Shown: piece after piece, positions 981 to 17,975 of the stretch
Numbering within the stretch: the first letter of the stretch is position 1
Layout: every line of letters starts with the position of its first letter
Source: Okeania sp.
Lineage (GTDB): Bacteria; Cyanobacteriota; Cyanobacteriia; Cyanobacteriales; Microcoleaceae
Direction: 5' to 3'
Assembly: GCF_035285525.1 (NCBI RefSeq)
Contig: NZ_JAYKGW010000015.1
Location: 1-18,150, forward strand
DNA: 18,150 nt
The notes under the pieces: generated by a model
Database searches by the model: none
What the model was told of the DNA's origin: nothing
Seen by the model: only the letters and a program-made list of their open reading frames with translations
Translations under genes and position numbers: made by a program

Positions 981-2807
981 ATGAGTTATTGCTATAATCC
1001 TACTTGTCAAAAACCTCAAAACCCAGACAAAAATAAATTCTGTCAAAGTTGCGGAGCTAAACTAATTCTAAGAGAACATTATCGCCTCCTAAAACCAATC
1101 GGAATTGGCACATTTAGCCGGACATTTTTAGCAGTTGATGAAGATATTCCTTCCCAACCAATTTCTGTAATTAAACAATTTTTACCAATAGCTACTCCCG
1201 GCAAAAATTCAGTACAAAATATCAATGAAATAGAAAAAGCATCAACATCATTTCAGAGAGAAGCATTACAATTAGATAAACTCGGAAAACATCCCCAAAT
1301 TCCCAGTTTATTAGCCTACTTTATTGTCTCATCCTATCAATATTTAGTTCAAGAATATATACAAGGAAAAAACTTACTTCAAGAATTAAAAGAAGAAGGA
1401 ACATTTGACGAACAAAAAATTAGACAATTTCTCAGAGAAATACTCCCTGTCTTGCAATTTATTCACAAAAATCAAGTCCTGCATCGCGACCTGAAACCAG
1501 AAAATATTATTCGTCGTGGTGCTGATGAAAACGAATATCACTGGAGCGGAAATTTATGTTTAGTCGGTTTCGGTGCTGCCAAAGCTATTTCCACTAATCC
1601 CAAAGTCAACAGTTTTACTGTCATTGGTTCCCCAGAATATACAGCTCCAGAACAGCTAACAGGTCAACCCGTATTTGCTAGCGATATTTATAGCTTGGGA
1701 GTTATTTGTATTCATTTAATGACTCAAGTTGACCCCTTCGACTTGCGTCACGGTGAAGAATGGTTATGGCAACAACATATACCCAGACCTGTGAGTACAT
1801 CCTTGAGTAATATCATTAATAAAATGCTAGAAGTCTCTTTGTCCCAACGTTATAGTTCAGTAGAAGAAATTTGGCAAGACTTAATGCAAACAACAGCAAG
1901 TTCTTGGGAAGCATTAGAAAGTTTAGAAAATAATGGTGACAAAGTGAGAACTGTAGCATTTAGTATTGATGGTCAAAATCTCGTAAGTGGTGGTGAAGAT
2001 AATAATATTAAAGTCTGGAGTCTGGGAACCGGAAACGCTCCTCAGATTTTAGGAGGTTGGATGTTCAGTCATTCGGGATGGGTGCAGGCGATCGCTTTTA
2101 GTCCGGACGGTCAACTCCTAGTGAGTGGAAGTAATGACAATGCGATCAAGATTTGGAACTTAGGTACTGGAAAGTTGATGCGCACTTTGGGAAACTGGTT
2201 TGGTCAAGACTGGGGTGCTGTACAGGCGATCGCTATTAGTAAAGATGGTCAAATATTGGCTAGTGGTCATGGCGACAAAACAGTAAAAGTCTGGTATCTC
2301 AACAGTGGAAAAATGCGGGGATTTTTGAAAGGTCATACTGCTTGGATCGAGTCGGTTGCTATTAGTCCCGATGGCAAGGTATTGGTAAGTGGAAGTGGGG
2401 ATAAGACGATTAAATTATGGGATGTGGAAACTGGGAAGTTGTTGTTAACTTTGACTGGTCATACTGATATCGTTCGGAGTGTAGCGATCGCTCCTGATAG
2501 TCAGATATTGGCAAGTGGTAGTAGTGACAATACTGTGAGGTTGTGGCAGTTAGCAACGGGAGATTTATTGGGAATATTGCAGCATCCCGATGGAGTGAAT
2601 AGTGTTGCTATTAGTCCTGATGGTTTGATATTAGCGAGTGGGTGTCGGGATGGGAATTTGTATTTATGGAATCCTTATACAATGGAGGAGATCGCAGTAT
2701 TGAGTCAAGAGGCAGTAGTGAATGCGATAACATTTAGTGTGGATGGTCAAATGTTGGCAGCCGGTTGTGGGGATGGAAGTGTCGGTGTGTGGCAAAGGGT
2801 GAGATAA
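981..2807 (+). CDS. Ser/Thr protein kinase-like protein with N-terminal Cys4 zinc ribbon and C-terminal WD40 beta-propeller (about 7 repeats); DFG motif degenerate (GFG)
   Basis: 608-aa ORF. Zinc ribbon: CYNPTCQ...CQSCG. Hanks kinase motifs: GIGTFSRTF glycine loop, VIKQF lysine, HRDLKPENI catalytic loop, SPEYTAPEQ. Then recurring V.AIA.SPDGQ.LxSGSxDxTIKxW WD40 units from about aa 315 to the end. Confidence 0.9.
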   Translation: MSYCYNPTCQKPQNPDKNKFCQSCGAKLILREHYRLLKPIGIGTFSRTFLAVDEDIPSQPISVIKQFLPIATPGKNSVQNINEIEKASTSFQREALQLDKLGKHPQIPSLLAYFIVSSYQYLVQEYIQGKNLLQELKEEGTFDEQKIRQFLREILPVLQFIHKNQVLHRDLKPENIIRRGADENEYHWSGNLCLVGFGAAKAISTNPKVNSFTVIGSPEYTAPEQLTGQPVFASDIYSLGVICIHLMTQVDPFDLRHGEEWLWQQHIPRPVSTSLSNIINKMLEVSLSQRYSSVEEIWQDLMQTTASSWEALESLENNGDKVRTVAFSIDGQNLVSGGEDNNIKVWSLGTGNAPQILGGWMFSHSGWVQAIAFSPDGQLLVSGSNDNAIKIWNLGTGKLMRTLGNWFGQDWGAVQAIAISKDGQILASGHGDKTVKVWYLNSGKMRGFLKGHTAWIESVAISPDGKVLVSGSGDKTIKLWDVETGKLLLTLTGHTDIVRSVAIAPDSQILASGSSDNTVRLWQLATGDLLGILQHPDGVNSVAISPDGLILASGCRDGNLYLWNPYTMEEIAVLSQEAVVNAITFSVDGQMLAAGCGDGSVGVWQRVR

Positions 2808-2837
2808 TGGATAATTGATAATTGATAATTGATAATT
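2803..2837 (+). repeat. Heptamer tandem repeat GATAATG + GATAATT x4
   Basis: 7-nt register read directly. The first unit overlaps the kinase TAA stop codon (2805-2807). Confidence 0.9.
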
Positions 2838-2963
2838 AAGGGTTGCTGATTCAATGTTCTTATACCATTTCGACCTGATGTTGCGCTTAATAAAAGGTAA
2901 TAGTTGTTTAAAAATTCAGGTCTAGGTTAGAGTTATTGTTCTTAGTGCGATTTTTTGGGAACC

Positions 2964-3125
2964 GTGCATCCTGCTCCCGGGGGTTTACCTCACCATGATA
3001 GACCTAGAAACCCGGTTTCTTAAAGAAACCGGGTTTCTTTGTGCAGTTGGAAATAATAGAAGTGGAATGGGCATCCTACCCGTCCCCAAAAATTAGGCAC
3101 CGGCAAGATTCCCCCATACACAAAA
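2964..3125 (+). repeat. Composite small dispersed repeat, copy A (GCATCYTGCTCCC block, TACCTCACCAT block, perfect 15-bp-stem palindrome AGAAACCCGGTTTCT-TAA-AGAAACCGGGTTTCT at 3006-3038, then GGGCATCCTRCC..GTCCCCAAAAAT..GGCAAGAT block)
   Basis: Collinear with copy B at 4899-5071 in the same orientation. The blocks resemble the very small mobile repeats/MITEs known from Nostocales genomes. Confidence 0.8.
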
Positions 3126-3183
3126 CTATTTTCTTCCAGTCGCAATGACTTGGATATAGTAATTAGGACTTGCTGATTAAATC

Positions 3184-3293
3184 AGGACTTACGCAGAAAC
3201 TGGGTTTATCAACAAAATCTCGTGGTTTGAACTGAATCCAGAAACCCAGAAACCCGGTTTCTCAAAGAAACCGGGTTTCTTTGCGTAAGTCCT
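3184..3293. mobile_element. 110-bp MITE-like element with 12-bp perfect terminal inverted repeats (AGGACTTACGCA ... TGCGTAAGTCCT) enclosing another GAAACCCGGTTTCT/AGAAACCGGGTTTC palindrome
   Basis: TIRs at 3184-3195 and 3282-3293. No coding capacity. A degenerate relative lies at 6554-6656. Confidence 0.7.
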
Positions 3294-3437
3294 ATAAATC
3301 TCAAAGCATTTTTTAAGCTCCATTATCTTTTCTTAAATTTTCTTTCGTGATAACCTTAAATTATAATTAAAATGTTGATTTTTTTTTCAACACAATTACA
3401 ATAGTCAACCGTAGACATAATCTAGATAGAGGCATCT

Positions 3438-4619
3438 ATGGCAAAATTCAATTTCAAGAACTTCGATAAAATATCCAAGTTAACTCTAAACGGTAGCGCA
3501 GCACAAGAGGGGAGCCAAAGTCTTCTACGCTTGACAAATCAAAATTCTAATGCTCAGTGGGGCAGCGCTTTTTTCTCCAAACCTATCAAGATTACTGAAA
3601 ATACCTCTTTTGAAACATACTTCCAGTTTCAAATTTCTAAATCACCTTTCGATGACGTCCAAGGTTTGGTCTTCATGCTCCAAAACGATCCCAGGAAGGA
3701 TAATACTCTAGGCGAAAGTGGAGCAGGATCCCTTGGATACAGAGGTATCTCCTCAAACATAGGTATAGAATTTGATACTAAAGACACTAATTATGGTAGT
3801 GAGTATGACGATCCTGGTGACAATCACATTGGACTTAATAAAAATGGGAATCTCGGATCTTTAGATTTTGTTGAAGCCAACCAAGATATGGATAGTGGCA
3901 ATGTCATTCATGCTTGGATTGACTATAATGGCAAAAATGATAAGCTCGAGGTTTTTCTATCCAGTACCGACCAGAAGCCACGAAATTCACTATTTTCAAG
4001 CAAAATAGACCTTAAGGATACTGTTGGTAAAAGAGCTTATGTAGGGTTCAGCGCTGCAACAACCGACTTCGAGAATGGTAATATAGACATCCTCCAATGG
4101 AACTTTTCCTCGGAAGAGGAGGGTAGCTCCAAACCTACAAAAAGTATCAACGGCAACAATGGCAATAACCGATTAACAGGAACTAAGAATAGCGATCGCA
4201 TCAACGGCAAAGGGGGTAAAGATATCCTTACTGGTGCTGCTGGCAACGATATTCTCACTGGTGGTAACGGAGCAGACGACTTCCTTTTCGGCGGTAACAA
4301 ACCCTACAGCCAAAAAAACTTGGGCACCGATAAAATCACCGACTTTCAACCAGAGGTTGACGAAATAATCCTCGAACGCGATGTTTTCATCACCCTCCGC
4401 AGTAAAGCAGGAGAAGGATTTAGCATCAATCGCGAATTTGATATCGTCAAGAACAAACGCGCCGTTGCCAACTCTGTCGCTGATATCGTCTACGACCGCT
4501 CCACTGGAGATTTATACTACAACGCCAATAGCGCCCTCAGTGGTTTTGGTGGTGGCGGTAAATTTGCCACCTTAGAAGGAGCGCCCAATATTAGCGAGTC
4601 TGATTTTGTGCTACAGTAA
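3438..4619 (+). CDS. Secreted-type calcium-binding protein: N-terminal L-type (legume-like/ConA-fold) lectin domain fused to RTX GGxGxD nonapeptide repeats
   Basis: 393-aa ORF with GAGG 5 nt upstream of the ATG. Lectin-like pattern: LNGSA..LRLT..QWGSAFF, F.FQI, LVFMLQ, IEFDT, DNHIGLN, HAWIDYNG..LEVFL, YVGFSAAT. RTX repeats at aa ~237-285: GNNGNNRLTGTKNSDRINGKGGKDILTGAAGNDILTGGNGADDFLFG. No N-terminal signal peptide is visible. Confidence 0.85.
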   Translation: MAKFNFKNFDKISKLTLNGSAAQEGSQSLLRLTNQNSNAQWGSAFFSKPIKITENTSFETYFQFQISKSPFDDVQGLVFMLQNDPRKDNTLGESGAGSLGYRGISSNIGIEFDTKDTNYGSEYDDPGDNHIGLNKNGNLGSLDFVEANQDMDSGNVIHAWIDYNGKNDKLEVFLSSTDQKPRNSLFSSKIDLKDTVGKRAYVGFSAATTDFENGNIDILQWNFSSEEEGSSKPTKSINGNNGNNRLTGTKNSDRINGKGGKDILTGAAGNDILTGGNGADDFLFGGNKPYSQKNLGTDKITDFQPEVDEIILERDVFITLRSKAGEGFSINREFDIVKNKRAVANSVADIVYDRSTGDLYYNANSALSGFGGGGKFATLEGAPNISESDFVLQ

Positions 4620-4703
4620 GCAGAGTAGATTCCACCGCGCGTAAAATCTTGCGTCGAGAATGTTGTTTTCCACTTACAGCGGTTTTCATTTTGGTAAACC
4701 ATA

Positions 4704-4741
4704 GTAGGGACCTTGCATAACAAAAATGCTAACGTCCCTAC
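4704..4741. repeat. Palindromic dispersed repeat GTAGGGACCTTGCAT-loop-ATGCTAACGTCCCTAC; possible terminator for the lectin-RTX gene
   Basis: About 13 of 15 bp pair, with a 7-nt loop, followed by AAAATTTT. The same family occurs in inverse orientation at 12185-12222. Confidence 0.55.
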
Positions 4742-4898
4742 AAAATTTTGGCTATGCTGATTTTGATTTAATAATTCTTTGAGGTTTAATCAGCAACCCA
4801 TCATTATCTTTTCAAGGTAAACAGTAGTGGGAGCATCTTGCTCCCTTACTAAATGAGGGAACACTTAACTGGGAACAGGGAACAGTTTAAACTATCGG

Positions 4899-5071
4899 AG
4901 CATCTTGCTCCCTTACTAAATCAGGACTTACTGTACCTCACCATTGATACACCCAGAAACCGGGTTTCTTCAAGAAACCCGGTTTCTTTGTGCAAATGTT
5001 TCATCGCCGGTATGGGCATCCTGCCTGTCCCCAAAAATCAGGAACGGGCAAGATCCCCATTCCACAAAATT
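4899..5071 (+). repeat. Composite small dispersed repeat, copy B (same block order and orientation as 2964-3125)
   Basis: GAGCATCTTGCTCCC, TACCTCACCATTGATAC, the CCCAGAAACCGGGTTTCTTCAAGAAACCCGGTTTCTTTGTGCA palindrome and GGGCATCCTGCCTGTCCCCAAAAATCAGGAACGGGCAAGAT all align by eye with copy A. An extra GGAGCATCTTGCTCCCTTACTAAAT unit sits at about 4829-4853. Confidence 0.8.
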
Positions 5072-5091: not shown

Positions 5092-5754
5092 CTAACCAAT
5101 TTTATACTCCTGAATTCTAACTTCTGATGTCATAAATAATGCTCGATATACAGGTTGATTTTTAGCTAAAGTTGCCTTTTCTCTTTCTGATAAAACAGGC
5201 AAAATATTTTCCTTTAACCAATCATTAGAAGTTCGAGAAAATGAACTATTTTTTGAGAAGCGATCGCACATTTCTTTGGCTACTTTTTCTACATCAGAAT
5301 GTAAAAAAATTTCTCCTCCCACTGTTAAATAATTTGCTAAATCTTCAACTAATTTTGGTTGTACAACTCGACGGGTTTGATGACGTCTTTTAAACCAAGG
5401 ATCGGGAAATAAAATAGAGACTCTTTTTAATATTCCTTTTGGCAAAGAATCAAATATTTCTGCTAGGGAAATATTCGCATTACAAAACAAATAATGCAAA
5501 TTATTTAAACCTTGTTCATCTCGCAAATTATTAGCTTCTATAACTAAAGGTTCTCGTATTTCTAAACCTAGAAAATTCCACTCAGGTTCTACCTGTGCCA
5601 TCTGCCATAAAAATCTACCTCTAGCACAACCAATATCCAAATGTAATGGTTTGTTCATATCTGTATAAATACCACTCAAATTAGGAATCTTTATTGACTG
5701 TTGATATCTGCTAGATAAAGGATTAACGTGCTGTCTAACTCTTACTCTTGCCAA
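5092..5754 (-). CDS. trmB: tRNA (guanine-N7)-methyltransferase
   Basis: 220-aa ORF. It has the [10 protein letters not shown]-terminus, [13 protein letters not shown]-binding motif, [14 protein letters not shown] motif and GGEIFLHSD, all characteristic of TrmB. Confidence 0.9.
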
Positions 5755-5994
5755 AATTTAAACCTCCATTATTTTAAGCATTTAGCTATTAGCCGTCAGC
5801 TTTCAGCCCTCTACTTCTCTAAAAGAAACTCCCCAACGGAAGACTCTTTATAATAATCTAATTTTGTCATCTTTTTGGATAAGAATGAATTCAGAAATTA
5901 GGGATAAAGTAAATGTCATGTCAGTTATCGGTTATCAGTTAGTTTTCTACATAGGAACTGTTAAGGAAGTTTCTCCAGTGAAAAGGCAATAAAA

Positions 5995-6060
5995 TTAGGA
6001 ATTTCCATTTTTATCAATGGCTAAATTAGAAATGGGAGAAGTATTACTAACAATAATCAT
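5995..6060 (-). pseudogene. Truncated stub of a DUF3368/PIN-like toxin gene (partner of the UPF0175 antitoxin)
   Basis: ATG at 6060-6058 overlaps the UPF0175 TGA stop in a 4-nt ATGA junction. It reads MIIVSNTSPISNLAIDKNGNS*. The first 15 aa match the usual DUF3368 start (..VSxTSPLxxLAxIG..), then it stops after 21 codons. Downstream frames are broken and run into GATAAC heptamers. Confidence 0.5.
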
Positions 6061-6302
6061 CGCCAGGGTTCCTTTTGTAATGTTTTGAGGTCTTCCTGAA
6101 ATTCTACTACGTCGTAATGAACACAAATTCTACGATCGCTGATTAATTTCTGAAATTGCATTCGGTGTATTCCTAGCAACTCACTAGCTTTACCTAAACT
6201 GATTTTTTCTTGTTGAAAAAGCATCATCAAAATTTCTACTAATAATTGATCTTCTGACAAGCCACTTGCTTGTAGAATTTGATCTGATATTAATAAACTC
6301 AT
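6057..6302 (-). CDS. UPF0175-family antitoxin-like protein
   Basis: MSLLISDQILQASGLSEDQLLVEILMMLFQQEKISLGKASELLGIHRMQFQKLISDRRICVHYDVVEFQEDLKTL fits the UPF0175 pattern (helix-turn-helix-like SLGKA..L.G..R..F). The ORF is open to an upstream ATG at 6326, which would add 8 aa. Confidence 0.75.
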   Translation of the reverse strand: MSLLISDQILQASGLSEDQLLVEILMMLFQQEKISLGKASELLGIHRMQFQKLISDRRICVHYDVVEFQEDLKTLQKEPWR

Positions 6303-6553
6303 TGTTATTTGAAAATTAATTAACACTGCTGAAGGCTAAAGTCTATGACAACTGCATCTATAAAACTAATACAAAGACTCACATAACCTGACAATCCAAT
6401 GTTTACTTCCTGCTTCTACTGAGCCATTCGTTTGTATGAGAATTAAGTAAATATTGATAATAATCAAGATAATTGAAATTCATATTATTAACTCAAATCA
6501 ACAATAACACTATTCTCTAATAGTTAGAGTTTTTTGGCAAGATTTATTTACAT

Positions 6554-6656
6554 AGGACTTACACGGGAGGAACCTGGTTTCTAGGATAAATCCTTGTTTT
6601 GAGCAATAGACATCTACGCTCGTACCGGGTTTCTGGGTTCACATGGCTTTAGTCCT
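6554..6656. mobile_element. Degenerate MITE-like element of the AGGACTTAC...AGTCCT family
   Basis: Ends AGGACTTACAC (6554-) and TTTAGTCCT (-6656). Internal GGAACCTGGTTTCTAGG and GTACCGGGTTTCTGGG blocks resemble the element at 3184-3293. It lies in the divergent spacer upstream of the heterocyclase. Confidence 0.5.
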
Positions 6657-6821
6657 GTTACATTTTACGAACCTCTAGGTTAAAGCTACTCAGGGATTAT
6701 TTTTAACTTTTAAATTGTACATAGCGCTATAATACTTGTTTGGTGTCATTCCATGCTTTGCTTTGCTGCGCAATGCTAACGCGAACAACCAAACTTACAT
6801 AATTAACTAAAATAATTTATA

Positions 6822-9128
6822 ATGTCAAACCCACAAATCAAGCCCCACTATCGCATCGAAATTATCGAACCCAAACACGTTTACCTCCTGGGAGAAAATT
6901 CTACCGAGACCCTGACTGGAGAATTTTATTGTCAGCTCATTCCCCTATTAGATGGTCAACATACCTTTGAAGAAATCTGTCAAACGTTAGCAGAAATAGT
7001 AAACCCAGAAGATGTCGAATATCTTCTTAACCATCTCCAAACCAAAGGTTATTTAACCCAAGCAACCCCCGAACTATCCCCACCTGCTGCTGCATTTTGG
7101 TCATTACTCAACGTAGAACCTCAACTCGCTGCCGACTTTCTCCAAAAAATCACCGTTTATGTCGCCTCAGTGGGAGAAACAACCACAGATTTATTAATCG
7201 AAAGTTTGACCGCAGTAGGTATCAAAACTAAACTTTGGGAAGACTACCCACTCACGTCAGATCGCAACGCATTATTAGTTGTTCTCACCGATGACTACCT
7301 CCAACCACAACTGGCAGAAATCAATAAAGCTAACGTCTCAGCTAACCAACCTTGGTTATTAGCAAAACCAGTAGGCAGTTTGCTGTGGTTAGGTCCCATA
7401 TTTGCACCAGATATAGGATGTTGGGAATGTTTGAGTCAACGTTTGCGCGGACATCGAAAAGTAGAAGCTACGGTTTGGCGACAAAAACAAAAATCTATTG
7501 CTTCTAGTACGACCAAAAGAAAAGTTTCTGGATGTTTGCCTCCTCCTGCTGTTTTCCTCCCTTCAACTTTAGCAACTGCTATCAATCTCATCACCACGGA
7601 AGTTGCCAAATGGATAGTACAACAAAGTGGGGTGGAAATGCCCTACTTTACCACTCTTGCTGGCAAAGTAATTACTTTCAATCAAGCTAACCTAACCACA
7701 GAGACTCACTTTTTGAGTAAACGCCCCCAATGTCCAGCTTGTGGAAATCCCAAATTACTCCAAGAAATGTCTTTTTATCCTCTTACTCTCACCAGTCGGA
7801 AAAAGCATTTTACCACAGATGGCGGTCATCGCGCTGTTACTCCCGATCAAACAACCAAACGCTACGAAAAATTAATCAGTCCCATTACTGGAGTTGTCAG
7901 TGCATTAGTGCGAGTTTCCGAGCCTGAAAATCCTGTGGTTCATACTTACACTGCTATTCATGGTTTTGCTATAGCTAAAAATTTGGATGCTTTGCGTCCT
8001 TCCCTACGTCATCAAAGTGGAGGTAAAGGTAAAACTGATCGCCAATCTAGAGCTAGTGGTTTTTGTGAAGCGATCGAACGTTATTCGGGAATATTCCAGG
8101 GAGACGAACCTCGGAAAAAGTCAACTTTAGCTGATTTGGGAGATCGAGGTATTCATCCAGAAAAAATTCTGCATTTTAGTCTGACGCAGTATGCTAATCG
8201 GGAGAAATTGAATGCTAACTGTAAAGTAGAGCATGATTGGATTCCCCAACCTTTTGATGCCCGTCAAAAAATTGAATGGACTCCAGTGTGGTCGCTGACG
8301 GAGCAGAAACACAAATATTTGCCTACTGCTTTTTGTTATTATGGTTATAAATTGCCCAAAAAGCATAATTTTTGTGCAGGTGATTCCAATGGTAACGCTG
8401 CGGGAAATACCATAGAAGAAGCAATTTTGCAAGGATTTATGGAATTAGTGGAGCGCGACAGTGTAGCGATTTGGTGGTATAATAGTTTGCAGCGTCCGGG
8501 GGTAGATTTAGCCAGTTTTGACGATCGCTATTTATTAGAATTGCAAAAATTTTATCGAAAAAATCAGCGGGAGTTATGGGTGTTGGATTTAACTACAGAT
8601 TTAGGAATACCTGCTTTTACTGCCGTTTCCCGTCGAGTTGAAGGAGAATATGAGCGAATTATTTCTGGTTTTGGAGCGCATTTTGACCCCAAAATTGCCA
8701 TTCTGCGAGCAGTAACGGAACTCAATCAAATTGGATTGGGAATGGATCGGCAAGAGATTAGTCAGATGGAGGAAGGGATGCAAGAATGGATGATGACAGC
8801 AACTGTAGCAAGTCATCCTTATTTAGCTCCTCATCCAGAAATACCTGCTAAGGTTTATGGAGATTATCCGCAACTTTGGAGCGATGACATTTATAATGAT
8901 GTTTTGACTTGTGTGAAAATTGCTCAAGCAGCAGGAATGGAAACTTTGGTATTAGATCAGACTCGTCCGGATATTGGGTTAAAAGTAGTTAAGGTGATCG
9001 TGCCTGGGTTGCGTCATTTTTGGTCGCGGTTTGGCAAAGGAAGGCTGTATGATGTTCCGGTGAAAATGGCTTGGTTATCTGAAGCATTGTCAGAGGAGCA
9101 GATGAGTTCAATACCGATGGTGCTTTAA
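6822..9128 (+). CDS. PatD/TruD-type cyanobactin heterocyclase (fused E1-like/RRE leader-binding domain + YcaO cyclodehydratase domain)
   Basis: 768-aa ORF. N-terminus QIKPHYRIEIIEPKHVYLLGE..LTGEFYCQLIPLLDG, VVLTDDYLQP, QPWLLAKPVGSLLWLGPIF. Two CxxC pairs (C200/C203, C304/C307). YcaO motifs SGGKGKTDRQSRASGFCEAIERYSGIFQGDEPRK, DSNGNAAGNTIEEAILQGFMELVERDSVAIWWYN, VLDQTRPDIGLKVVKVIVPG, GRLYDVPVK. These match my memory of PatD/TruD/LynD along the whole length. Confidence 0.9.
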   Translation: MSNPQIKPHYRIEIIEPKHVYLLGENSTETLTGEFYCQLIPLLDGQHTFEEICQTLAEIVNPEDVEYLLNHLQTKGYLTQATPELSPPAAAFWSLLNVEPQLAADFLQKITVYVASVGETTTDLLIESLTAVGIKTKLWEDYPLTSDRNALLVVLTDDYLQPQLAEINKANVSANQPWLLAKPVGSLLWLGPIFAPDIGCWECLSQRLRGHRKVEATVWRQKQKSIASSTTKRKVSGCLPPPAVFLPSTLATAINLITTEVAKWIVQQSGVEMPYFTTLAGKVITFNQANLTTETHFLSKRPQCPACGNPKLLQEMSFYPLTLTSRKKHFTTDGGHRAVTPDQTTKRYEKLISPITGVVSALVRVSEPENPVVHTYTAIHGFAIAKNLDALRPSLRHQSGGKGKTDRQSRASGFCEAIERYSGIFQGDEPRKKSTLADLGDRGIHPEKILHFSLTQYANREKLNANCKVEHDWIPQPFDARQKIEWTPVWSLTEQKHKYLPTAFCYYGYKLPKKHNFCAGDSNGNAAGNTIEEAILQGFMELVERDSVAIWWYNSLQRPGVDLASFDDRYLLELQKFYRKNQRELWVLDLTTDLGIPAFTAVSRRVEGEYERIISGFGAHFDPKIAILRAVTELNQIGLGMDRQEISQMEEGMQEWMMTATVASHPYLAPHPEIPAKVYGDYPQLWSDDIYNDVLTCVKIAQAAGMETLVLDQTRPDIGLKVVKVIVPGLRHFWSRFGKGRLYDVPVKMAWLSEALSEEQMSSIPMVL

Positions 9129-9192
9129 GAAGGCAGAAGGAAAGAAAAGGTTAGAAGGGATAATTCTTGTGGGATGGGCATCCTACCAGTCC

Positions 9193-9287
9193 AAAAATAC
9201 AGCAGATTCCACTTTGGTGAGGTACACCTACCTACGCGAGCAAAAGGCACAGTTCCCGAAAAATAGCACTGAATCTGCTGTATTTTT
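9193..9287. repeat. 17-bp perfect inverted repeat (AAAAATACAGCAGATTC ... GAATCTGCTGTATTTTT) with a 61-nt loop between convergent genes
   Basis: Arms at 9193-9209 and 9271-9287. It is preceded by a GGGATGGGCATCCTACCAGTCC dispersed-repeat block (9171-9192), and the loop contains GGTGAGGTA (reverse complement of the TACCTCACC block). Confidence 0.8.
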
Positions 9288-9288
9288 G

Positions 9289-9807
9289 TTAAAAAACTTT
9301 ATAAATAACTGCTCCTGTTTCTGGGTGATTTTCCATTTCAACTAATCCCTGTAGATATAAACTTTTTAACAGTTCTTTCACTTCTGGTACAGTTTTATTT
9401 GTGGCAATAATACAATCTGCTATAGAAATTCCCTCTGGATGTTTCTTTGCCAATTCAAGAATAATTTGTGTGTCCGATTTGGGAGGATTTTTTTCTAAAA
9501 TCCTCTCTATTTGTTCCTGGGGTAAATAATTAAAAATATCCCCAGAATCTAATCGCTTCTTCAGCATTTTCAGATTTTTCTCTTCTACCATTCCAGGAAT
9601 AAAAAATAAATCAAAAAATTGACCTATCCCTAATAAACCTAAGGTACCTAACCAGATAGTGCCTGTGAAATATTTACCCGAATAAAATCTATGTAATCCA
9701 CAAATACCGAAAAAACTAGAACACCATAAAAGGTAAGCCATACCTGTATTTCTAGTTTCATCTATTTGACGTACTTTAGAATTATCAACAATTTTAGATT
9801 TGTTCAT
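9289..9807 (-). CDS. TM2 domain-containing membrane protein with a C-terminal soluble (winged-helix-like) domain
   Basis: 172-aa ORF. AYLLWCSSFFGICGLHRFYSGKYFTGTIWLGTLGLLGIGQFFDLFFIP is a typical two-helix TM2 domain. The assignment of the C-terminal ~90 aa is a guess. Confidence 0.75.
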   Translation of the reverse strand: MNKSKIVDNSKVRQIDETRNTGMAYLLWCSSFFGICGLHRFYSGKYFTGTIWLGTLGLLGIGQFFDLFFIPGMVEEKNLKMLKKRLDSGDIFNYLPQEQIERILEKNPPKSDTQIILELAKKHPEGISIADCIIATNKTVPEVKELLKSLYLQGLVEMENHPETGAVIYKVF

Positions 9808-9825
9808 TTTTTGAGTTCCTATTTC

Positions 9826-9860
9826 AATAATGGATAATTGATAATGGATAATTGATAATT
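9826..9860. repeat. Heptamer tandem repeat (AATAATG GATAATT GATAATG GATAATT GATAATT)
   Basis: 7-nt register read directly. It starts 19 nt upstream of the TM2 gene start codon (minus strand). Confidence 0.9.
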
Positions 9861-10104
9861 ACCTCTCCTTAAAAGGAAGAGTATTAAATAAAAGGAAAAA
9901 ATTTATTTTTCTTGGTCGATTAGAAATGGTTAGAGAACCCATCCATCTCACCCTACAGGAAGCTCCGCTTTTCATGTCTGCTCAAGGGCCGAAAAGACCG
10001 TTTTTTCCTTTTTAAAGGGGAAGCTTCAAGGCGCGAATTATTTCATTATTTACATTATTAATTCGGTAAATAAATATAAGATTCGATATAAATTTTCAAT
10101 TTTA

Positions 10105-11193
10105 CTAGCTGAACTTACAGACCAAACTAGCATCTATATTTTCTACCTTAGCACAACCACTCAATGCCATAGCCACATCTAATTCACTACTCAATAACTC
10201 CAACAAATGCCGCACTCCATTTTCTCCATCCACCGCTAACGCCCACAAAACCGGACGGCCAACTAAAACTGCTTTTGCTCCCAATGCCAAAGCTTTCAAA
10301 ATATCTGTACCTCTGCGAATCCCCCCATCCATCAACACATCCACCTTATTTCCTACTGCTGCCACTACCTCTGGAAGAGCATCAATAGTAGCGATCGCTC
10401 CATCTAACTGTCTACCACCATGATTAGAAACAATAATTCCTTTGGCTCCATGTTCAACTGCTCGAATAGCATCATCTCCCCGTAAAATTCCTTTCACTAC
10501 TATAGGTAATGATGTCAATGACTGCAACCATTCAATATCTTGCCAAGTCAGAGCTGAATCGAGTTGATGAGCAAAATAAGTAAATAATCCAGACTCATCT
10601 TCTGTTTCCGGAATTTCTAAATTTGCCATTGAGGCTAAATTAGCTAATTTCAGATTAGATGGTAAAGTAAATTTATTTTTTCGGTCTCGTTCCCTAACAC
10701 CTAAAATTGGTGCATCAGCTGTCACACATAATGCTTGATAACCTGCTGCTTCTGCTCTTTCAACTAAAGCACGAGTCAGGGAGCGATCGCGATGCACATA
10801 GAGTTGAAACCACAAACTTCTGGGTACATCGGCCGCTAATGCTACATCTTCTAAAGTTGTGTTTGACATGGTACTTAATACCATTGTTATGCCTAATTCT
10901 GCTGCTACTTTTGCTGTTGCTAATTCTCCTTCTGAATGCGCCAAACATTGAAATGCCATAGGAGCAATTAAAATCGGCATTTTGATTGGTTTCCCCAAAA
11001 TTTTGGTACTTAAATTTCGTTGACTAACATCCACTAACATTCGTGGTCTAAGTTTATATTTTGCATAAGCAGTACGATTATCTCGCAAAGTAATTTCATC
11101 CCAAGCACCACTAGCATAATAATCTAGTACGATTTGAGATAAATATTCTGGAGCTAAAGATTCATACTCAAACAGATTAATAGGTTTGTTCAT
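10105..11193 (-). CDS. FMN-dependent alpha-hydroxy-acid oxidase (L-lactate oxidase / glycolate oxidase family)
   Basis: 362-aa ORF with family motifs: PILIAPMAFQ, LSTMSNTTLEDV, WFQLYV, VTADAPILGVRERD, PIVVKGIL, IIVSNHGGRQLD, DGGIRRGTDILKALALGA. Confidence 0.9.
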   Translation of the reverse strand: MNKPINLFEYESLAPEYLSQIVLDYYASGAWDEITLRDNRTAYAKYKLRPRMLVDVSQRNLSTKILGKPIKMPILIAPMAFQCLAHSEGELATAKVAAELGITMVLSTMSNTTLEDVALAADVPRSLWFQLYVHRDRSLTRALVERAEAAGYQALCVTADAPILGVRERDRKNKFTLPSNLKLANLASMANLEIPETEDESGLFTYFAHQLDSALTWQDIEWLQSLTSLPIVVKGILRGDDAIRAVEHGAKGIIVSNHGGRQLDGAIATIDALPEVVAAVGNKVDVLMDGGIRRGTDILKALALGAKAVLVGRPVLWALAVDGENGVRHLLELLSSELDVAMALSGCAKVENIDASLVCKFS

Positions 11194-11923: not shown

Positions 11924-12184
11924 AATTTTATTCCTAGTATATATTATTAATTAATAATGCATAATTAATAATGACAAATATCTCTAAATTAGAGTTTGCT
12001 GATTAAATATTAAAGGATTAACAAATATAAGGTTTCAGTAAATTTAAGTCCTCAAAAAGTACCAGCTTTTCGGTTAAAGTGAGCAGGAAAAGTGAGAATT
12101 TTGGGCTAACGCGAGTTAGAAACATTAAGGGACTATTTATTATCAACTACGAACTCTTCTATAACCCCCATTTCTTCACACTCT

Positions 12185-12222
12185 GTAAGGACGTTCGCAT
12201 TTTTGTCATGCAACGTCCCTAC
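12185..12222. repeat. Palindromic dispersed repeat (GTAAGGACGTTCGCAT-loop-ATGCAACGTCCCTAC), same family as 4704-4741 in inverse orientation
   Basis: Its reverse complement aligns with 4704-4741 with a few substitutions. Confidence 0.7.
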
Positions 12223-12336: not shown

Positions 12337-14034
12337 TTAGTTATTTCCGTAATCTACCTTTGATTGACTACTTATTTCTTCTGTTGTCTCAATCACAAAT
12401 TCAAAAGCTTGACCTTGAGAACTGCCAAATTTTAACAATGATCCTGAACTTATAGCCACCTCATCACGATGTATTCTTTGCCAATTATCAGACTGATAAA
12501 TTAAAGTACCAAAACGAGAAATGTCTCGTAAAAAATAAGTGGGTTCAACTTCTTCATTTGGTAAGTAACGACAAAAAATTTCTGCGTGTTTTTGGGAAAC
12601 CCACCGCTCCGGAATCTCTACATCATTTTCTGGAGAACGCCCCACTTTAATTGTCCCAAACCAAATTGGCCAAACTTGATTATGATCATTTCGAGAACGT
12701 AAAAAAGCTCTAAAAGTATAACTACCCATCCAAGTCGGAGAATTAGTAGGTAGTTGAGTTACTAATTCATCAAATACTTGTACTAATTGACCATTAAATT
12801 CTGGGTGCATATACAAAACTGGTAATGTCCAAGCTGGTTGATTAAATTTGTAGAGAGTTAATAATTGTTGTCTTGCTACTGTTACTGCTTGATCTATCAA
12901 CATTCCCTCTATCAAACTTTGAGCCAAAACTTGAATAAAACTTAAAGCTTCCCGATCAGCAATTTCATCTCGCATCCCCAAAACAGCAGGTACTCCATGA
13001 TGAATTAATACTTCTACTAGACTACTGCGTGGTATTACTTTTACTTCACCAGAAGATAGATTTTCTGTAACAGGTTGCGCTCCCCAGCAAGCATTGAATA
13101 CTGCTAGGGTTACTCCATTACGAACTAAAATTTGGGCTAACTCGGTACCATTAAGGGTGGTGTCAGGTGCTAAAAATAGGCAGCCTCCATCTGGACCTGG
13201 TTTACCGTGACCAGCATAGAATAGAACATTATATATTTTTTTATCTAAATAGGAAATTAATTCTTCTGGAGTGGGCTGAATTAGGGTATCAACTCTACAA
13301 GGAATAGTAGGATTAGGTTTAGGTGGATTAGGATTGGGGATATTTTGAGGTGTCAAAACCTCTATTAGTTGGGCTACCTCTTTTTCCAGTTTTAATTGGG
13401 ATTGATGGCCATTAGTTGTGAGGAATTGCCCTTTGGAGGTATTTTCCCCAATTACTAATAGAATATTCAGAAATTGGGAAGGTTGTTGATTTCGTAAGGG
13501 ATTAACATCACTGGTGGTACGACTGAACAAAATTTCCCGATTTAGAGAAAAGGCAGGTAAAGCGACTCCTGGTTGCATAATTTCCCAGGGTAGGGCAATT
13601 AATTCTGGTTCGCGAATATCTAATCTTACTCTTAAGGGCAGTTTTTGGCCAATGGCAATACCTTGACTTTGGTGTAAACTATCAGCGATTTCTCCTTGAA
13701 ATAGCCACTGCCAAATGCTGATGCCTAGATTTTGCATTAAGCGGGTGGTAATGTTGATTTTGACGCCAGATTCGGGGTCTGGATGAATATTTGTGGTAGA
13801 CTCTGAGTCAGGCTGAGCTGTACCAATAGGAATCGCAGGTAAATTTTCGGGAGAGAAGACTTCTAACCAAGTTTGCCAAGCTTGTGATAAGGTTTCTGGC
13901 CATACCTGGTCATGGTGGACATATCCCCGTTGCAAAGGAGCTTGCATTACCCAGGTGGCAAAATGATTAGTTTCTGGGATGTTCAGACGGGCGATCGCTA
14001 TACTTAAGCAGGGACTTTCTGGAGGGAAAGGCAT
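12337..14034 (-). CDS. CHAT-domain (caspase-like) protease fused to a C-terminal FHA phosphothreonine-binding domain
   Basis: 565-aa ORF. CHAT hallmarks: LPWEIM, VLFYAGHG (His276), AVFNACWG (Cys316), VLGMRDEI. FHA hallmarks at aa ~455-545: IKVGRSPENDVEIP..WVSQKHAEI....YFLRDISRFGTLI......I.....I..GSLLKFG. Confidence 0.85.
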   Translation of the reverse strand: MPFPPESPCLSIAIARLNIPETNHFATWVMQAPLQRGYVHHDQVWPETLSQAWQTWLEVFSPENLPAIPIGTAQPDSESTTNIHPDPESGVKINITTRLMQNLGISIWQWLFQGEIADSLHQSQGIAIGQKLPLRVRLDIREPELIALPWEIMQPGVALPAFSLNREILFSRTTSDVNPLRNQQPSQFLNILLVIGENTSKGQFLTTNGHQSQLKLEKEVAQLIEVLTPQNIPNPNPPKPNPTIPCRVDTLIQPTPEELISYLDKKIYNVLFYAGHGKPGPDGGCLFLAPDTTLNGTELAQILVRNGVTLAVFNACWGAQPVTENLSSGEVKVIPRSSLVEVLIHHGVPAVLGMRDEIADREALSFIQVLAQSLIEGMLIDQAVTVARQQLLTLYKFNQPAWTLPVLYMHPEFNGQLVQVFDELVTQLPTNSPTWMGSYTFRAFLRSRNDHNQVWPIWFGTIKVGRSPENDVEIPERWVSQKHAEIFCRYLPNEEVEPTYFLRDISRFGTLIYQSDNWQRIHRDEVAISSGSLLKFGSSQGQAFEFVIETTEEISSQSKVDYGNN

Positions 14035-14347: not shown

Positions 14348-15052
14348 AATTAATCTAAGGATATTACAGCAGTTTTGGCTTGTTATAAAGTAGATAATAC
14401 AGTTTTAGGCAATAGGCAAAAAAATATTCATTCTATCATTATTTTTCTCTCACGGAAAGTATAAGTAGTTTACTATATCTCATAAGAACGGGAAGCGCAA
14501 TTAGATAAATTTTCCTTCTTACTTCTTACTTCTTCCTTCTCTAACAAAAAATGTGGAATTTGAGAAAATATAATTGGTATTTTTTCCTACTTCTTACTTC
14601 TTAGTTCTTCCTTTTATAACAAAAAAATGTGGAATTTGAGAAAATATAGTTGGCATTATAAAAAATCTCAAAGTCCAGTTAGGAATTAATCTAAGGATAT
14701 TACAGCAGTTTCGGCGCGTTATGAGGTAGATAATATTCATAGTTTTAGGCAATAGACAAACAATATTCATTCCGTCATTCATTATTTTTCTTTTACGGAA
14801 AGCATAAGTATTTTACTATACCTCATAAGAACGGGAAGCACAATTGGATAATTTTTCCTTCTTACTTCTTACTTTTAACTTTGGAATTTTAACTTCCTAC
14901 TTCTTACTTTTAACTTTGGAATTTTAACTTTGGAATTTTAACTTCCTACTTCCTACTTCCTACTTCTTACTTCTTACTTTTAAATTTTGACTTCTCTAAC
15001 AACAAATGTGGAAATTGACAAAATATAATTGGCATTTTTTCCTATCCTTATT
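14348..15052 (+). repeat. Tandem duplication of the upstream region plus 5' end of the 660-aa membrane-protein gene (unit offset 336 bp; start-codon block present three times)
   Basis: 14348-14515 aligns with 14684-14852, with scattered substitutions and small indels. The block CTAACAAnAAATGTGGAAnTTGAnAAAATATAnTTGGnATT occurs with its ATG at 14551, 14627 and 15006. Heptamer tracts of different length separate the blocks. Confidence 0.9.
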
Positions 15053-17407: not shown

Positions 17408-17975
17408 ATGCCAAATCTCACAGTTAAAGACTTGGAAATTTTGCAAGGTACTCTAAGTCAAGCAGATTTAGATTATCAACTAGAATTAGAGGAAGGAAAT
17501 ATAATTAGTTATGAATCCATCAGATATTGTTTCTAGTGAAGTTGGCGCTCGGTTAACGAGGCTATTAGGTAATTGGGTTGAGCCACGTCGTCTTGGAAGT
17601 TTGTTTGATTCTAGTGGTGCTTTTATTCTTCCTGATAATAATCTCAAAGTTCCTGATGTTTCTTTTGTTCGTGCTAAACGTCTCAAAAAAAGTGTTCGTT
17701 ATTTTGGAGAATTAACGCCTGATTTAGTAGTAGAAATTAAATCTCAAAGTGACAGAATTAAACCTTTGGAAGAGAAAATTAAGAAGTATTTAGAATTAGG
17801 AGCAGAAGTAGAAATATTGATAGACCCAGACAAGCAAATAGTTATAGTTTATGCTGCTAATGGTGAAGAAATTCAGTTTAAAAATGGAGATGATTTGACT
17901 ATTCCTGAATTATTTGGTGAGTGGGAATTACCTATTGTTGAACTTTGGCGGCCTGTGTTTGATGAAGAGGAATAA
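17408..17975 (+). pseudogene. Uma2-family (DUF820) restriction-endonuclease-like protein, interrupted by a +1 frameshift at about 17507
   Basis: The ORF from ATG 17408 reads MPNLTVKDLEILQGTLSQADLDYQLELEEGNII, then goes out of frame and stops at 17530-17532. The ORF 17511-17975 continues MNPSDIVSSEVGARLTRLLGNWVEPRRLGSLFDSSGAFILPDNNLKVPDVSFV...DLVVEIKSQSD...LGAEV.ILIDP, typical of Uma2. Removing A17507 gives ..EEGNIIVMNPSD.., the usual Uma2 junction, and a single 188-aa ORF. Confidence 0.7.

Follow-up and report, generated by a model that had tools for sequence, protein, structure and literature searches.

The window analysed here is a stretch of 18,150 nt that makes up the entire contig NZ_JAYKGW010000015.1 in an assembly of Okeania sp. 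(GCF_035285525.1), and its central feature is an intact gene for a cyanobactin heterocyclase of the PatD/LynD/MusD type, hereafter window D. The gene runs from 6822 to 9128 on the forward strand, begins with an ATG and encodes 768 aa, in which a winged helix-turn-helix/RRE region, an E1-like region and a C-terminal YcaO domain are joined in one polypeptide; a previous interpretation made from the letters alone (the sequence-only reading) had described a full-length fused E1-like/RRE and YcaO protein at this place, with coordinates, start and end that proved correct. Pfam models locate the N-terminal winged helix at residues 5-79 (PF21084, 114 bits) and the YcaO domain at residues 401-731 (PF02624, 334 bits, profile positions 2-325 of 325). 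Among the NCBIfam models, the TOMM leader-peptide-binding domain TIGR03882 scores 139 bits over residues 176-359, and the SagD-type model TIGR03604 reaches 261 bits against a cut-off of 219, so the poor score that could have spoken against a PatD-type enzyme did not occur. Solved structures are matched over residues 5-766, with 1047 bits for MusD (7u58), 1040 for LynD (4v1t) and 999 for TruD (4bs9), and these full-length similarities to characterised heterocyclases agree with the family models on the PatD/TruD/LynD-type identity that had been proposed.

Window D is 59% identical to LynD and much closer to proteins of its own clade, namely those of Okeania SIO3I5 and Dapis BLCC M229 (both 88%) and SIO2D1 (87%). 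The copy of SIO2C2 shares 91% of its nucleotides, an abundant environmental form stands at 85% and the copies of SIO2B3, SIO1I7, SIO2C9 and SIO3B5 at 78-80%; below this Okeania/Dapis clade extends a wide plateau at about 60% identity, formed by LynD and hundreds of other cyanobactin heterocyclases. The open reading frame (ORF) encodes a genuine PatD/LynD-type cyanobactin heterocyclase of a lineage specific to Okeania and Dapis. With LynD, TruD, PatD and MusD it has in common the three-part architecture, a collinear similarity over the full length, family models above their cut-offs and all the family-invariant residues. It differs from them in its surroundings, since LynD belongs to an operon with the order A-B-C-D-E-F-G and window D has nothing of the kind around it.

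The sequence-only reading had stated that neither precursor nor protease nor tailoring genes lie nearby, which holds for intact genes throughout the 18-kb window: the 6.8 kb upstream and the 9 kb downstream of D contain no other intact gene of a cyanobactin cluster, and a PatE precursor, a PatA and a PatG are all missing from the locus. A six-frame tblastn search of the window with three Okeania precursors gave no PatE-like gene, the best hit (E 0.15) falling within D itself, and a hidden Markov model (HMM) seeded with the same three precursors matched none of the window ORFs of at least 25 aa. Remnants of PatA, PatG, PatB, PatC, PatF or a prenyltransferase were not found in the window; tblastn with Okeania PatA, Okeania PatG and LynG returned zero matches to a protease domain, the only LynG match being its oxidase-domain end on a relic described below, and Peptidase_S8 is absent from every window ORF. 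The two spacers that flank D are not quite as empty as had been claimed. ORFs of 24-33 codons occur in 6327-6821 and ORFs of 30-58 codons within or overlapping 9129-9288, where none longer than about 20 codons had been reported. None of these ORFs is precursor-like, in agreement with the statement that no leader-bearing precursor stands beside D, and ORFs of 80 and 58 aa have zero matches in Pfam or NCBIfam. Transposon-like terminal repeats were looked for around D and none was found, and a promoter and terminator scan of the same surroundings did no better than on shuffled sequence.

The upstream flank, where a decayed toxin-antitoxin pair had been described, is the remnant of a cyanobactin cluster and not an unrelated region; in it, a relic of an oxidase gene and a deletion scar had been overlooked. 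The reference for its coordinates is the locus of Okeania SIO3I5 (L021) that carries the PatA-type and PatG-type proteases (A and G) and the oxidase (Ox) of the pathway. A ThcOx-type azoline oxidase relic lies at 5805-5941 on the reverse strand, where codons 1-23 (5928-5860) have been joined in a different reading frame to codons 453-475 (5873-5805), so that the minus strand shows residues 1-23 (MTFTLSLISEFILIQKDDKI...) and 453-475 (...LDYYKESSVGEFLL) of the oxidase; about 1.28 kb of the interior is deleted and about 120 nt are left. In blastn the relic is 86-91% identical to L021 6626-6678 and 7960-8047 and to positions 5281-5333 and 6615-6699 of a further locus, L019. Window positions 5821-5873 correspond to the 3' end of the gene (L021 6626-6678, 91%) and 5854-5941 to its 5' end (L021 7960-8047, 88%), and the ThcOx protein of L021 finds the two pieces by tblastn with E values of 1e-5 and 2e-4. 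The identity of the L021 oxidase is confirmed by PF22767 (ThcOx), HTH_57 and Nitroreductase. The stand-alone gene is intact in L019 and L021 and present in the window as a relic only, from which it follows that the locus descends from a pathway with a stand-alone oxidase, of the tri/thc type, and no longer codes for that oxidase.

The collinearity with L021 continues towards D. The spacer upstream of ThcOx is preserved at 5968-6018 (L021 8050-8103, 78% over 54 nt, E 9e-7), and position 6018 is the junction of a deletion of about 1.23 kb (L021 8104-9334) that removed one precursor (E) gene and most of a DUF3368 toxin gene. The stump of this PIN-like toxin occupies 6019-6060 on the reverse strand and consists of the first 14 codons, 100% identical in tblastn to residues 1-14 of the 161-aa L021 protein, whose DUF3368 assignment is confirmed by Pfam. 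It is followed at 6057-6326, also on the reverse strand, by an intact UPF0175 antitoxin gene (PF03683, 75 bits; 86% protein identity over all 81 residues); the toxin-antitoxin (TA) pair noticed earlier is thus decayed in its toxin, as had been said, but not in its antitoxin. Window 6018-6319, that is the 14 DUF3368 codons and the whole of UPF0175, equals L021 9335-9636 at 89%, and the UPF0175 region is 89-92% identical at the nucleotide level to L021 9335-9636, L019 11016-11239 and L020 190-496; in the A/G/Ox locus of SIO3I5 the UPF0175 orthologue sits between precursor genes. L020 and L021 remain collinear for 1086 nt, through UPF0175 and into an E gene, and the window shares the UPF0175 part only, which sets a breakpoint at 6319/6320. 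To its right come about 455 nt of unique non-coding sequence (6320-6774), a conserved leader of about 40 nt and then D, whose nucleotide homology to every orthologue is limited to about 6775-9140, beginning 3-47 nt before the ATG and ending at most 12 nt past the stop. Towards D one thus meets the relic of the oxidase gene, the gap left by the precursor, the stump of the toxin gene, the intact antitoxin gene and the breakpoint. The precursor that adjoins the UPF0175 gene of L020 (Logan SRR25569772), a gene 89% identical to that of the window, is itself unusual: at 786-1022 it has a normal leader and ends in ...DNCGDYSFDNCGDYRF without the SYDG macrocyclisation signal, and it is either a decayed copy or one with an unusual repeated core.

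The sister genomes show what such a locus looks like when it is whole. Wherever a close orthologue (Okeania and Dapis, 78-91% identity) comes with sufficient flanking sequence, a PatE-family gene is found at a distance of 0.2-2.2 kb from D, and D is thus not free-standing by design, against what the idea of a stand-alone system would imply. The precursor is found near D in SIO3I5 (two copies), SIO2B3, Dapis, SIO3B5, SIO1I7 and SIO2C9, and as a truncated copy in O. hirsuta. Among the three seed precursors two pass the cut-off of TIGR03678 and all three match PF19155. Aligned with LynE, the Okeania precursors show a leader of the form MxKKNIxPxxxxPVIR, an LSEENL recognition sequence, a core that varies and a Cys immediately in front of SYDGDD, as in the ending ...GLAPLIEIPGVDPWDLAGVC-SYDGDDAE among the precursors of L002 or L021, and they are about 54% identical to the precursor of T. 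erythraeum. No subtilisin-type protease lies within 10 kb at the D loci found by the precursor HMM. A genus-wide module made of D and E only was considered and rejected, the search with the precursor family having found A, G and Ox elsewhere in the same assemblies.

In Okeania SIO3I5 (GCA_010672085.1) contig 195 carries D with two E genes, and contig 158, which is devoid of D, carries ThcOx, E, the DUF3368/UPF0175 pair, E, a PatA-type gene, transposases, E and a PatG-type gene; six precursors are listed for this genome, and on contig 158 three E genes are mapped and a fourth, P0246, is listed. In Okeania SIO2C2 (GCA_010692625.1) the 14-kb contig 111 bears D, three TA modules, a PatG-type gene, E, a transposase, E and a PatA-type gene, and contig 91 bears ThcOx with E and a TA module. 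The sister loci recovered show one oxidase copy. By BLASTP, the Okeania proteases of 657 and 734 aa are PatA-like, with 58-68% identity to LynA, and those of 702 aa are PatG-like, aligning to LynG only from residue 695 and hence without the oxidase domain. That no Okeania protease appeared among the 120 matches listed in a search with LynA was not accepted as absence, an identity of 58-68% having to be compared with a floor of 68% in that list. The thc and tri pathways encode their oxidase as a separate protein instead of a PatG domain (PMC5108345), and the Okeania sister loci, with their 475-aa ThcOx-type oxidase and 702-aa PatG-type protease, resemble these clusters for cyanothecamide in Cyanothece (thc) and trichamide in Trichodesmium (tri); they differ in being broken up by many TA modules and transposases, sometimes over two contigs, and the window keeps D alone. 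Window D shares with its orthologues in SIO3I5, SIO2C2, SIO2D1 and Dapis BLCC M229 (87-91%) the lineage, a length of 768-769 aa, largely the same tail and a homology that starts about 40 nt before the ATG, whereas the precursor within about 2 kb and the A, G and Ox genes in the same genome (SIO3I5, SIO2C2) have no counterpart at its locus. Judged by gene content, the lineage has an ordinary cyanobactin pathway; it is loosely arranged, abounds in transposases and TA modules and is in some cases divided between loci. In the literature searched there was nothing specific on Okeania cyanobactin clusters or on orphan D genes.

In its sequence window D is an outlier. An alignment of 123 homologues including window D has 232 columns conserved at 97% or more, and 6 of them are changed in window D (median 1; nearest sisters 0-2), which ranks it 4 of 123. 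At columns conserved in at least 95% it has 7 substitutions (R71H, T198I, E213K, L219W, K398Q, G750A and N762S), which are spread over the protein and do not cluster in the leader-binding domain. Among the 123 sequences column 762 is changed in window D alone (N762S), and this is the sole column invariant in the other 122 that is altered in the window. Lineage-specific changes were counted at sites where all other clade members agree, a method that understates synonymous changes in all lineages, so that only the contrast between lineages is meaningful: replacement and silent changes number 49/24 in the window, 9/14 in SIO3I5, 8/14 in Dapis and 2/6 in the SIO2C2 copy. The ratio of the window is about three times that of the sisters (Fisher p=0.0023 for the whole gene, and p=0.0036 when SIO2C2 is included and the count is limited to the N-terminal 459 codons), and the environmental D of L004 is intermediate with 40/29 (p=0.055 versus the sisters). 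The ratio of nonsynonymous to synonymous substitution rates (dN/dS) comes to about 0.28 on the window branch and about 0.10 for SIO3I5 and Dapis, as obtained by arithmetic on pairwise distances and not by a likelihood fit. Window D, the one copy with deleted neighbours, thus appears to evolve under a constraint relaxed about three-fold, or alternatively to have undergone some adaptive change.

The C-terminus reads ...EEQMSSIPMVL, with one proline, exactly as the sequence-only reading had stated when it questioned the activity of the enzyme. PxPxP is cited as the canonical motif of azoline-forming YcaO proteins (PMC12338566), and LynD and TruD end in NPTPMPF where window D ends in SSIPMVL. Among the 123 heterocyclases, however, strict PxPxP is in the minority: NPMPMVF occurs 42 times, NPTPMPF 21, NSTPMPF 10 and NSMPMVF 7, and the aligned tail of the solved MusD shows ...NPIS only. 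NSMPMVF is the tail of the Okeania clade, including copies inside intact clusters, and since the whole clade has it, the loss of the outer prolines is a trait of the lineage and no evidence of inactivation. The doubt about activity is weakened to this extent, the tail was largely rejected as a sign of inactivation, and PxPxP should be regarded as an unreliable marker of activity within cyanobactin heterocyclases and not as a strict requirement for belonging to the family. The window tail keeps the central proline alone and is unique among the 123 homologues, its seven terminal residues carrying three further changes from the clade (N to S, M to I and F to L), which fit the general excess of replacements in this gene.

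Taken together, these data make it probable that window D is the survivor of an eroded tri/thc-like cluster, under relaxed constraint and at most marginally used. As a member of its family, the enzyme would use its N-terminal winged-helix/RRE domain to bind the leader of PatE-type precursors, and its YcaO domain would use ATP to cyclodehydrate core Cys residues (in some enzymes Ser/Thr) to azolines, the usual target in the Okeania/Dapis lineage presumably being the Cys immediately before the SYDGDD macrocyclisation signal. The pathway to which the orthologue belongs in the sister genomes comprises D, several E genes, a protease of the PatA type, a macrocyclase of the PatG type that lacks the oxidase domain and a ThcOx that stands alone; its genes are separated by TA modules and transposases and may be placed at two loci. 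In the window a first clean deletion gutted the oxidase gene and a second took a precursor gene and the neighbouring toxin gene, and the breakpoint just past the surviving antitoxin gene joins this remnant to D. D would thus be all that remains intact of a cluster eroded at this locus, still open and catalytically plausible, and either in marginal use on precursors encoded elsewhere or in a first stage of loss. The deletion in ThcOx, the deletion of precursor and toxin and the breakpoint at 6319/6320 give direct physical support to this relic reading, which is further supported by the relaxed constraint on D.

The condition of the enzyme itself weighs against so simple a history of decay. The ORF is unbroken over 768 codons and none of the 118 columns invariant across the 123 homologues is altered, the EAIERY and ELVERD motifs being among them. 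The retained catalytic and structural residues include E416/E419/R420, E541/E544/R545 and the two CxxC pairs C200/C203 and C304/C307; the acidic motifs, putatively ATP/Mg-binding as in YcaO enzymes generally, are intact in the alignment. The pairwise dN/dS against orthologues is 0.17-0.24, and because this is far below 1, much of the divergence has arisen under purifying selection, there is no mark of a dead gene and the enzyme may well be active. To this must be added that the raised ratio of replacement to silent changes could reflect adaptation instead of relaxation, and that other contigs could carry A, G, Ox and E genes in intact form, as they do in SIO3I5.

These same points lend some weight to a functional split cluster, in which intact PatA, PatG and PatE-type precursors, perhaps with another oxidase, are encoded elsewhere, D works normally in trans and the relics are the debris of a duplicated or redundant segment. 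The two-contig pathways of SIO3I5 and SIO2C2 show that such splitting is normal in the genus, precursors are many and dispersed in Okeania, as the six listed in SIO3I5 illustrate, and D is intact in its ORF and its invariant residues, with a dN/dS of about 0.2. The want of an oxidase would not be fatal either, since an oxidase-less pathway can yield thiazoline cyanobactins, trunkamide being the non-oxidised exception (PMC5108345). Against it stands a replacement/silent ratio about three times that of the sisters in intact clusters, together with changes seen in no other homologue at positions that are elsewhere invariant or nearly so; the sole oxidase sequence on the contig is destroyed, where the sister loci recovered have one copy, and no other intact cluster gene accompanies D over the distances given above. 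A split cluster is accordingly a possible explanation, though a distinctly less likely one. A variant of it, which we consider unlikely, is a distributed Okeania pathway in which D and small sets of precursors are scattered as modules, flanked and perhaps stabilised by TA pairs, while one A/G/Ox set serves them in trans; window D would then have been retained, and its fast evolution and unique tail would reflect tuning to a changed repertoire of precursors and not decay.

Of the three readings offered earlier (an unconventional substrate, a split cluster and a relic), the last has thus gained physical support and the second a precedent, while the first has found none. A neofunctionalised, stand-alone heterocyclase kept for a peptide or protein outside the PatE family, with the excess changes and the new tail as adaptations, would account for a raised replacement rate in a preserved ORF and for the SSIPMVL tail and N762S, both unique among the 123 homologues. 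It is, however, very improbable: no candidate substrate gene is near D in the window, the changes are scattered and not clustered in the leader-binding domain, the pattern equals the prediction of relaxed constraint and O. hirsuta shows the decay in an advanced form. An unconventional substrate is moreover without support because all relatives use classical precursors, the orthologues all sitting with PatE-type genes (MxKKNIxP..PVIR, LSEENL, C-SYDGDD). It could also be asked whether a chimeric contig has wrongly joined D to unrelated flanks, the assembly being of the draft or metagenome type and Okeania genomes being rich in short dispersed repeats, but this is scarcely credible, given that window 6631-9850, a segment that crosses both borders of D, recurs at 100% identity in an independent Logan assembly (run SRR19514071), and that the upstream relics are collinear with L021, from the Ox end and the Ox start through the spacer and the toxin stump to the antitoxin, unlike a random chimera.

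The erosion inferred for the window has parallels at other stages. In O. hirsuta PAB10Feb10-1 (L016 62-918) D is reduced to residues 228-395, the YcaO half being gone, at 81% nucleotide identity to the window, and a truncated precursor of 47 aa (P0268) follows the fragment; this is a later stage in the decay of the same process. Records of P0268 exist for 12 contigs under the label 'MULTISPECIES [Okeania]', from which the O. hirsuta relic can be considered widespread. In Moorena bouillonii PNG5-198 heterocyclase homology is found in two pieces about 2 kb apart (L015 7543-7989 and 9999-11059), which suggests that its D gene is disrupted as well. The environmental D of L004 (ENA k141_444193, 2712-5021), which is 85% identical and stands in a cluster of 181 member sequences, has no precursor on its 6-kb contig and may be a second, independently orphaned copy. 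A published precedent is the piricyclamide (pir) cluster of Microcystis aeruginosa NIES843, which is fragmented and inactive (PMC3428304). As in the window, rearrangements have disabled a cyanobactin cluster, in a genome that abounds in mobile elements (PMC3428304); in Microcystis, however, insertion sequences have interrupted a cluster in which all genes are still present, whereas in the window deletions have removed most genes from the locus.

Further observations concern the plasticity of these regions. Cyanobactin genes are interspersed with TA modules and transposases in L002 (2470-4742), L021 (6607-19360), L022 (1380-12928) and L008 (7612-10000) of Okeania and Dapis, the TA types being DUF433/ParD-like, PIN, DUF3368/UPF0175 and 23S-rRNA-IVP and the transposases PD-(D/E)XK and IS605 OrfB; TA pairs beside cluster fragments may be stabilisers or may simply mark a plastic region. 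A nearly identical precursor occurs in four Okeania species (L003 12765-12950, L009 2695-2880, L010 13414-13599 and L013 13063-13248), which share even the normally hypervariable core, basic and with a single Cys (...APQGARRNRPYRC-SYDGDAD). It is followed by a conserved ORF of 123-139 aa and, on the opposite strand, by an ABC-2 permease gene, a context that suggests a conserved product and possibly an exporter for it.

Downstream of D the gene calls agree with the earlier description: a TM2 gene at 9289-9807 on the reverse strand is convergent with D and is followed, on the same strand at 10105-11193, by a gene resembling FMN-dependent lactate oxidases/dehydrogenases. In the spacer between D and TM2 (9129-9288) the homology to orthologues ends 5-12 nt past the D stop, and a perfect inverted repeat of 18 nt (9192-9209 and 9271-9288, with a 61-nt spacer) may serve as a terminator in both directions or represent a small mobile element; within the spacer, 9197-9243 is 89% identical to L009. 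Other genes of the window, none of them tied to cyanobactin synthesis, lie at 981-2807 (4-Cys-prefix Ser/Thr kinase with WD40), 3438-4619 (legume-lectin with RTX repeats), 12337-14034 (CHAT with FHA, HetF-like) and 17511-17975 (Uma2-family endonuclease). Short dispersed repeats of 35-150 nt and 77-97% identity are present at 9820-9968, 4674-4743, 725-863, 12184-12218 and 14857-14930, with a tandem 14-mer at 9827-9854; they recur at many unrelated sites in other Okeania loci and are probably miniature repeat elements specific to the genus.

In conclusion, window D belongs to a well-known enzyme family, and its orphan look has a conventional explanation, being likely the outcome of ordinary gene-cluster erosion by deletions and rearrangement and not a new stand-alone system, so that current knowledge of the biosynthesis of ribosomally synthesised peptides with post-translational modifications (RiPPs) is not challenged. 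In Okeania and Dapis a series of decay can be drawn from intact clusters riddled with TA modules and transposases, through the D-only remnant of the window, to the D fragment of O. hirsuta. For genome mining this is a caution, as a RiPP enzyme gene that stands alone and looks perfect can be all that is left of a cluster otherwise lost to erosion; here the proof consists of relics of about 40 to 140 nt that become visible only by comparison with sister genomes. More generally, the cyanobactin pathways of these marine mat-formers are routinely split across loci, and cluster-calling software will under-report them.

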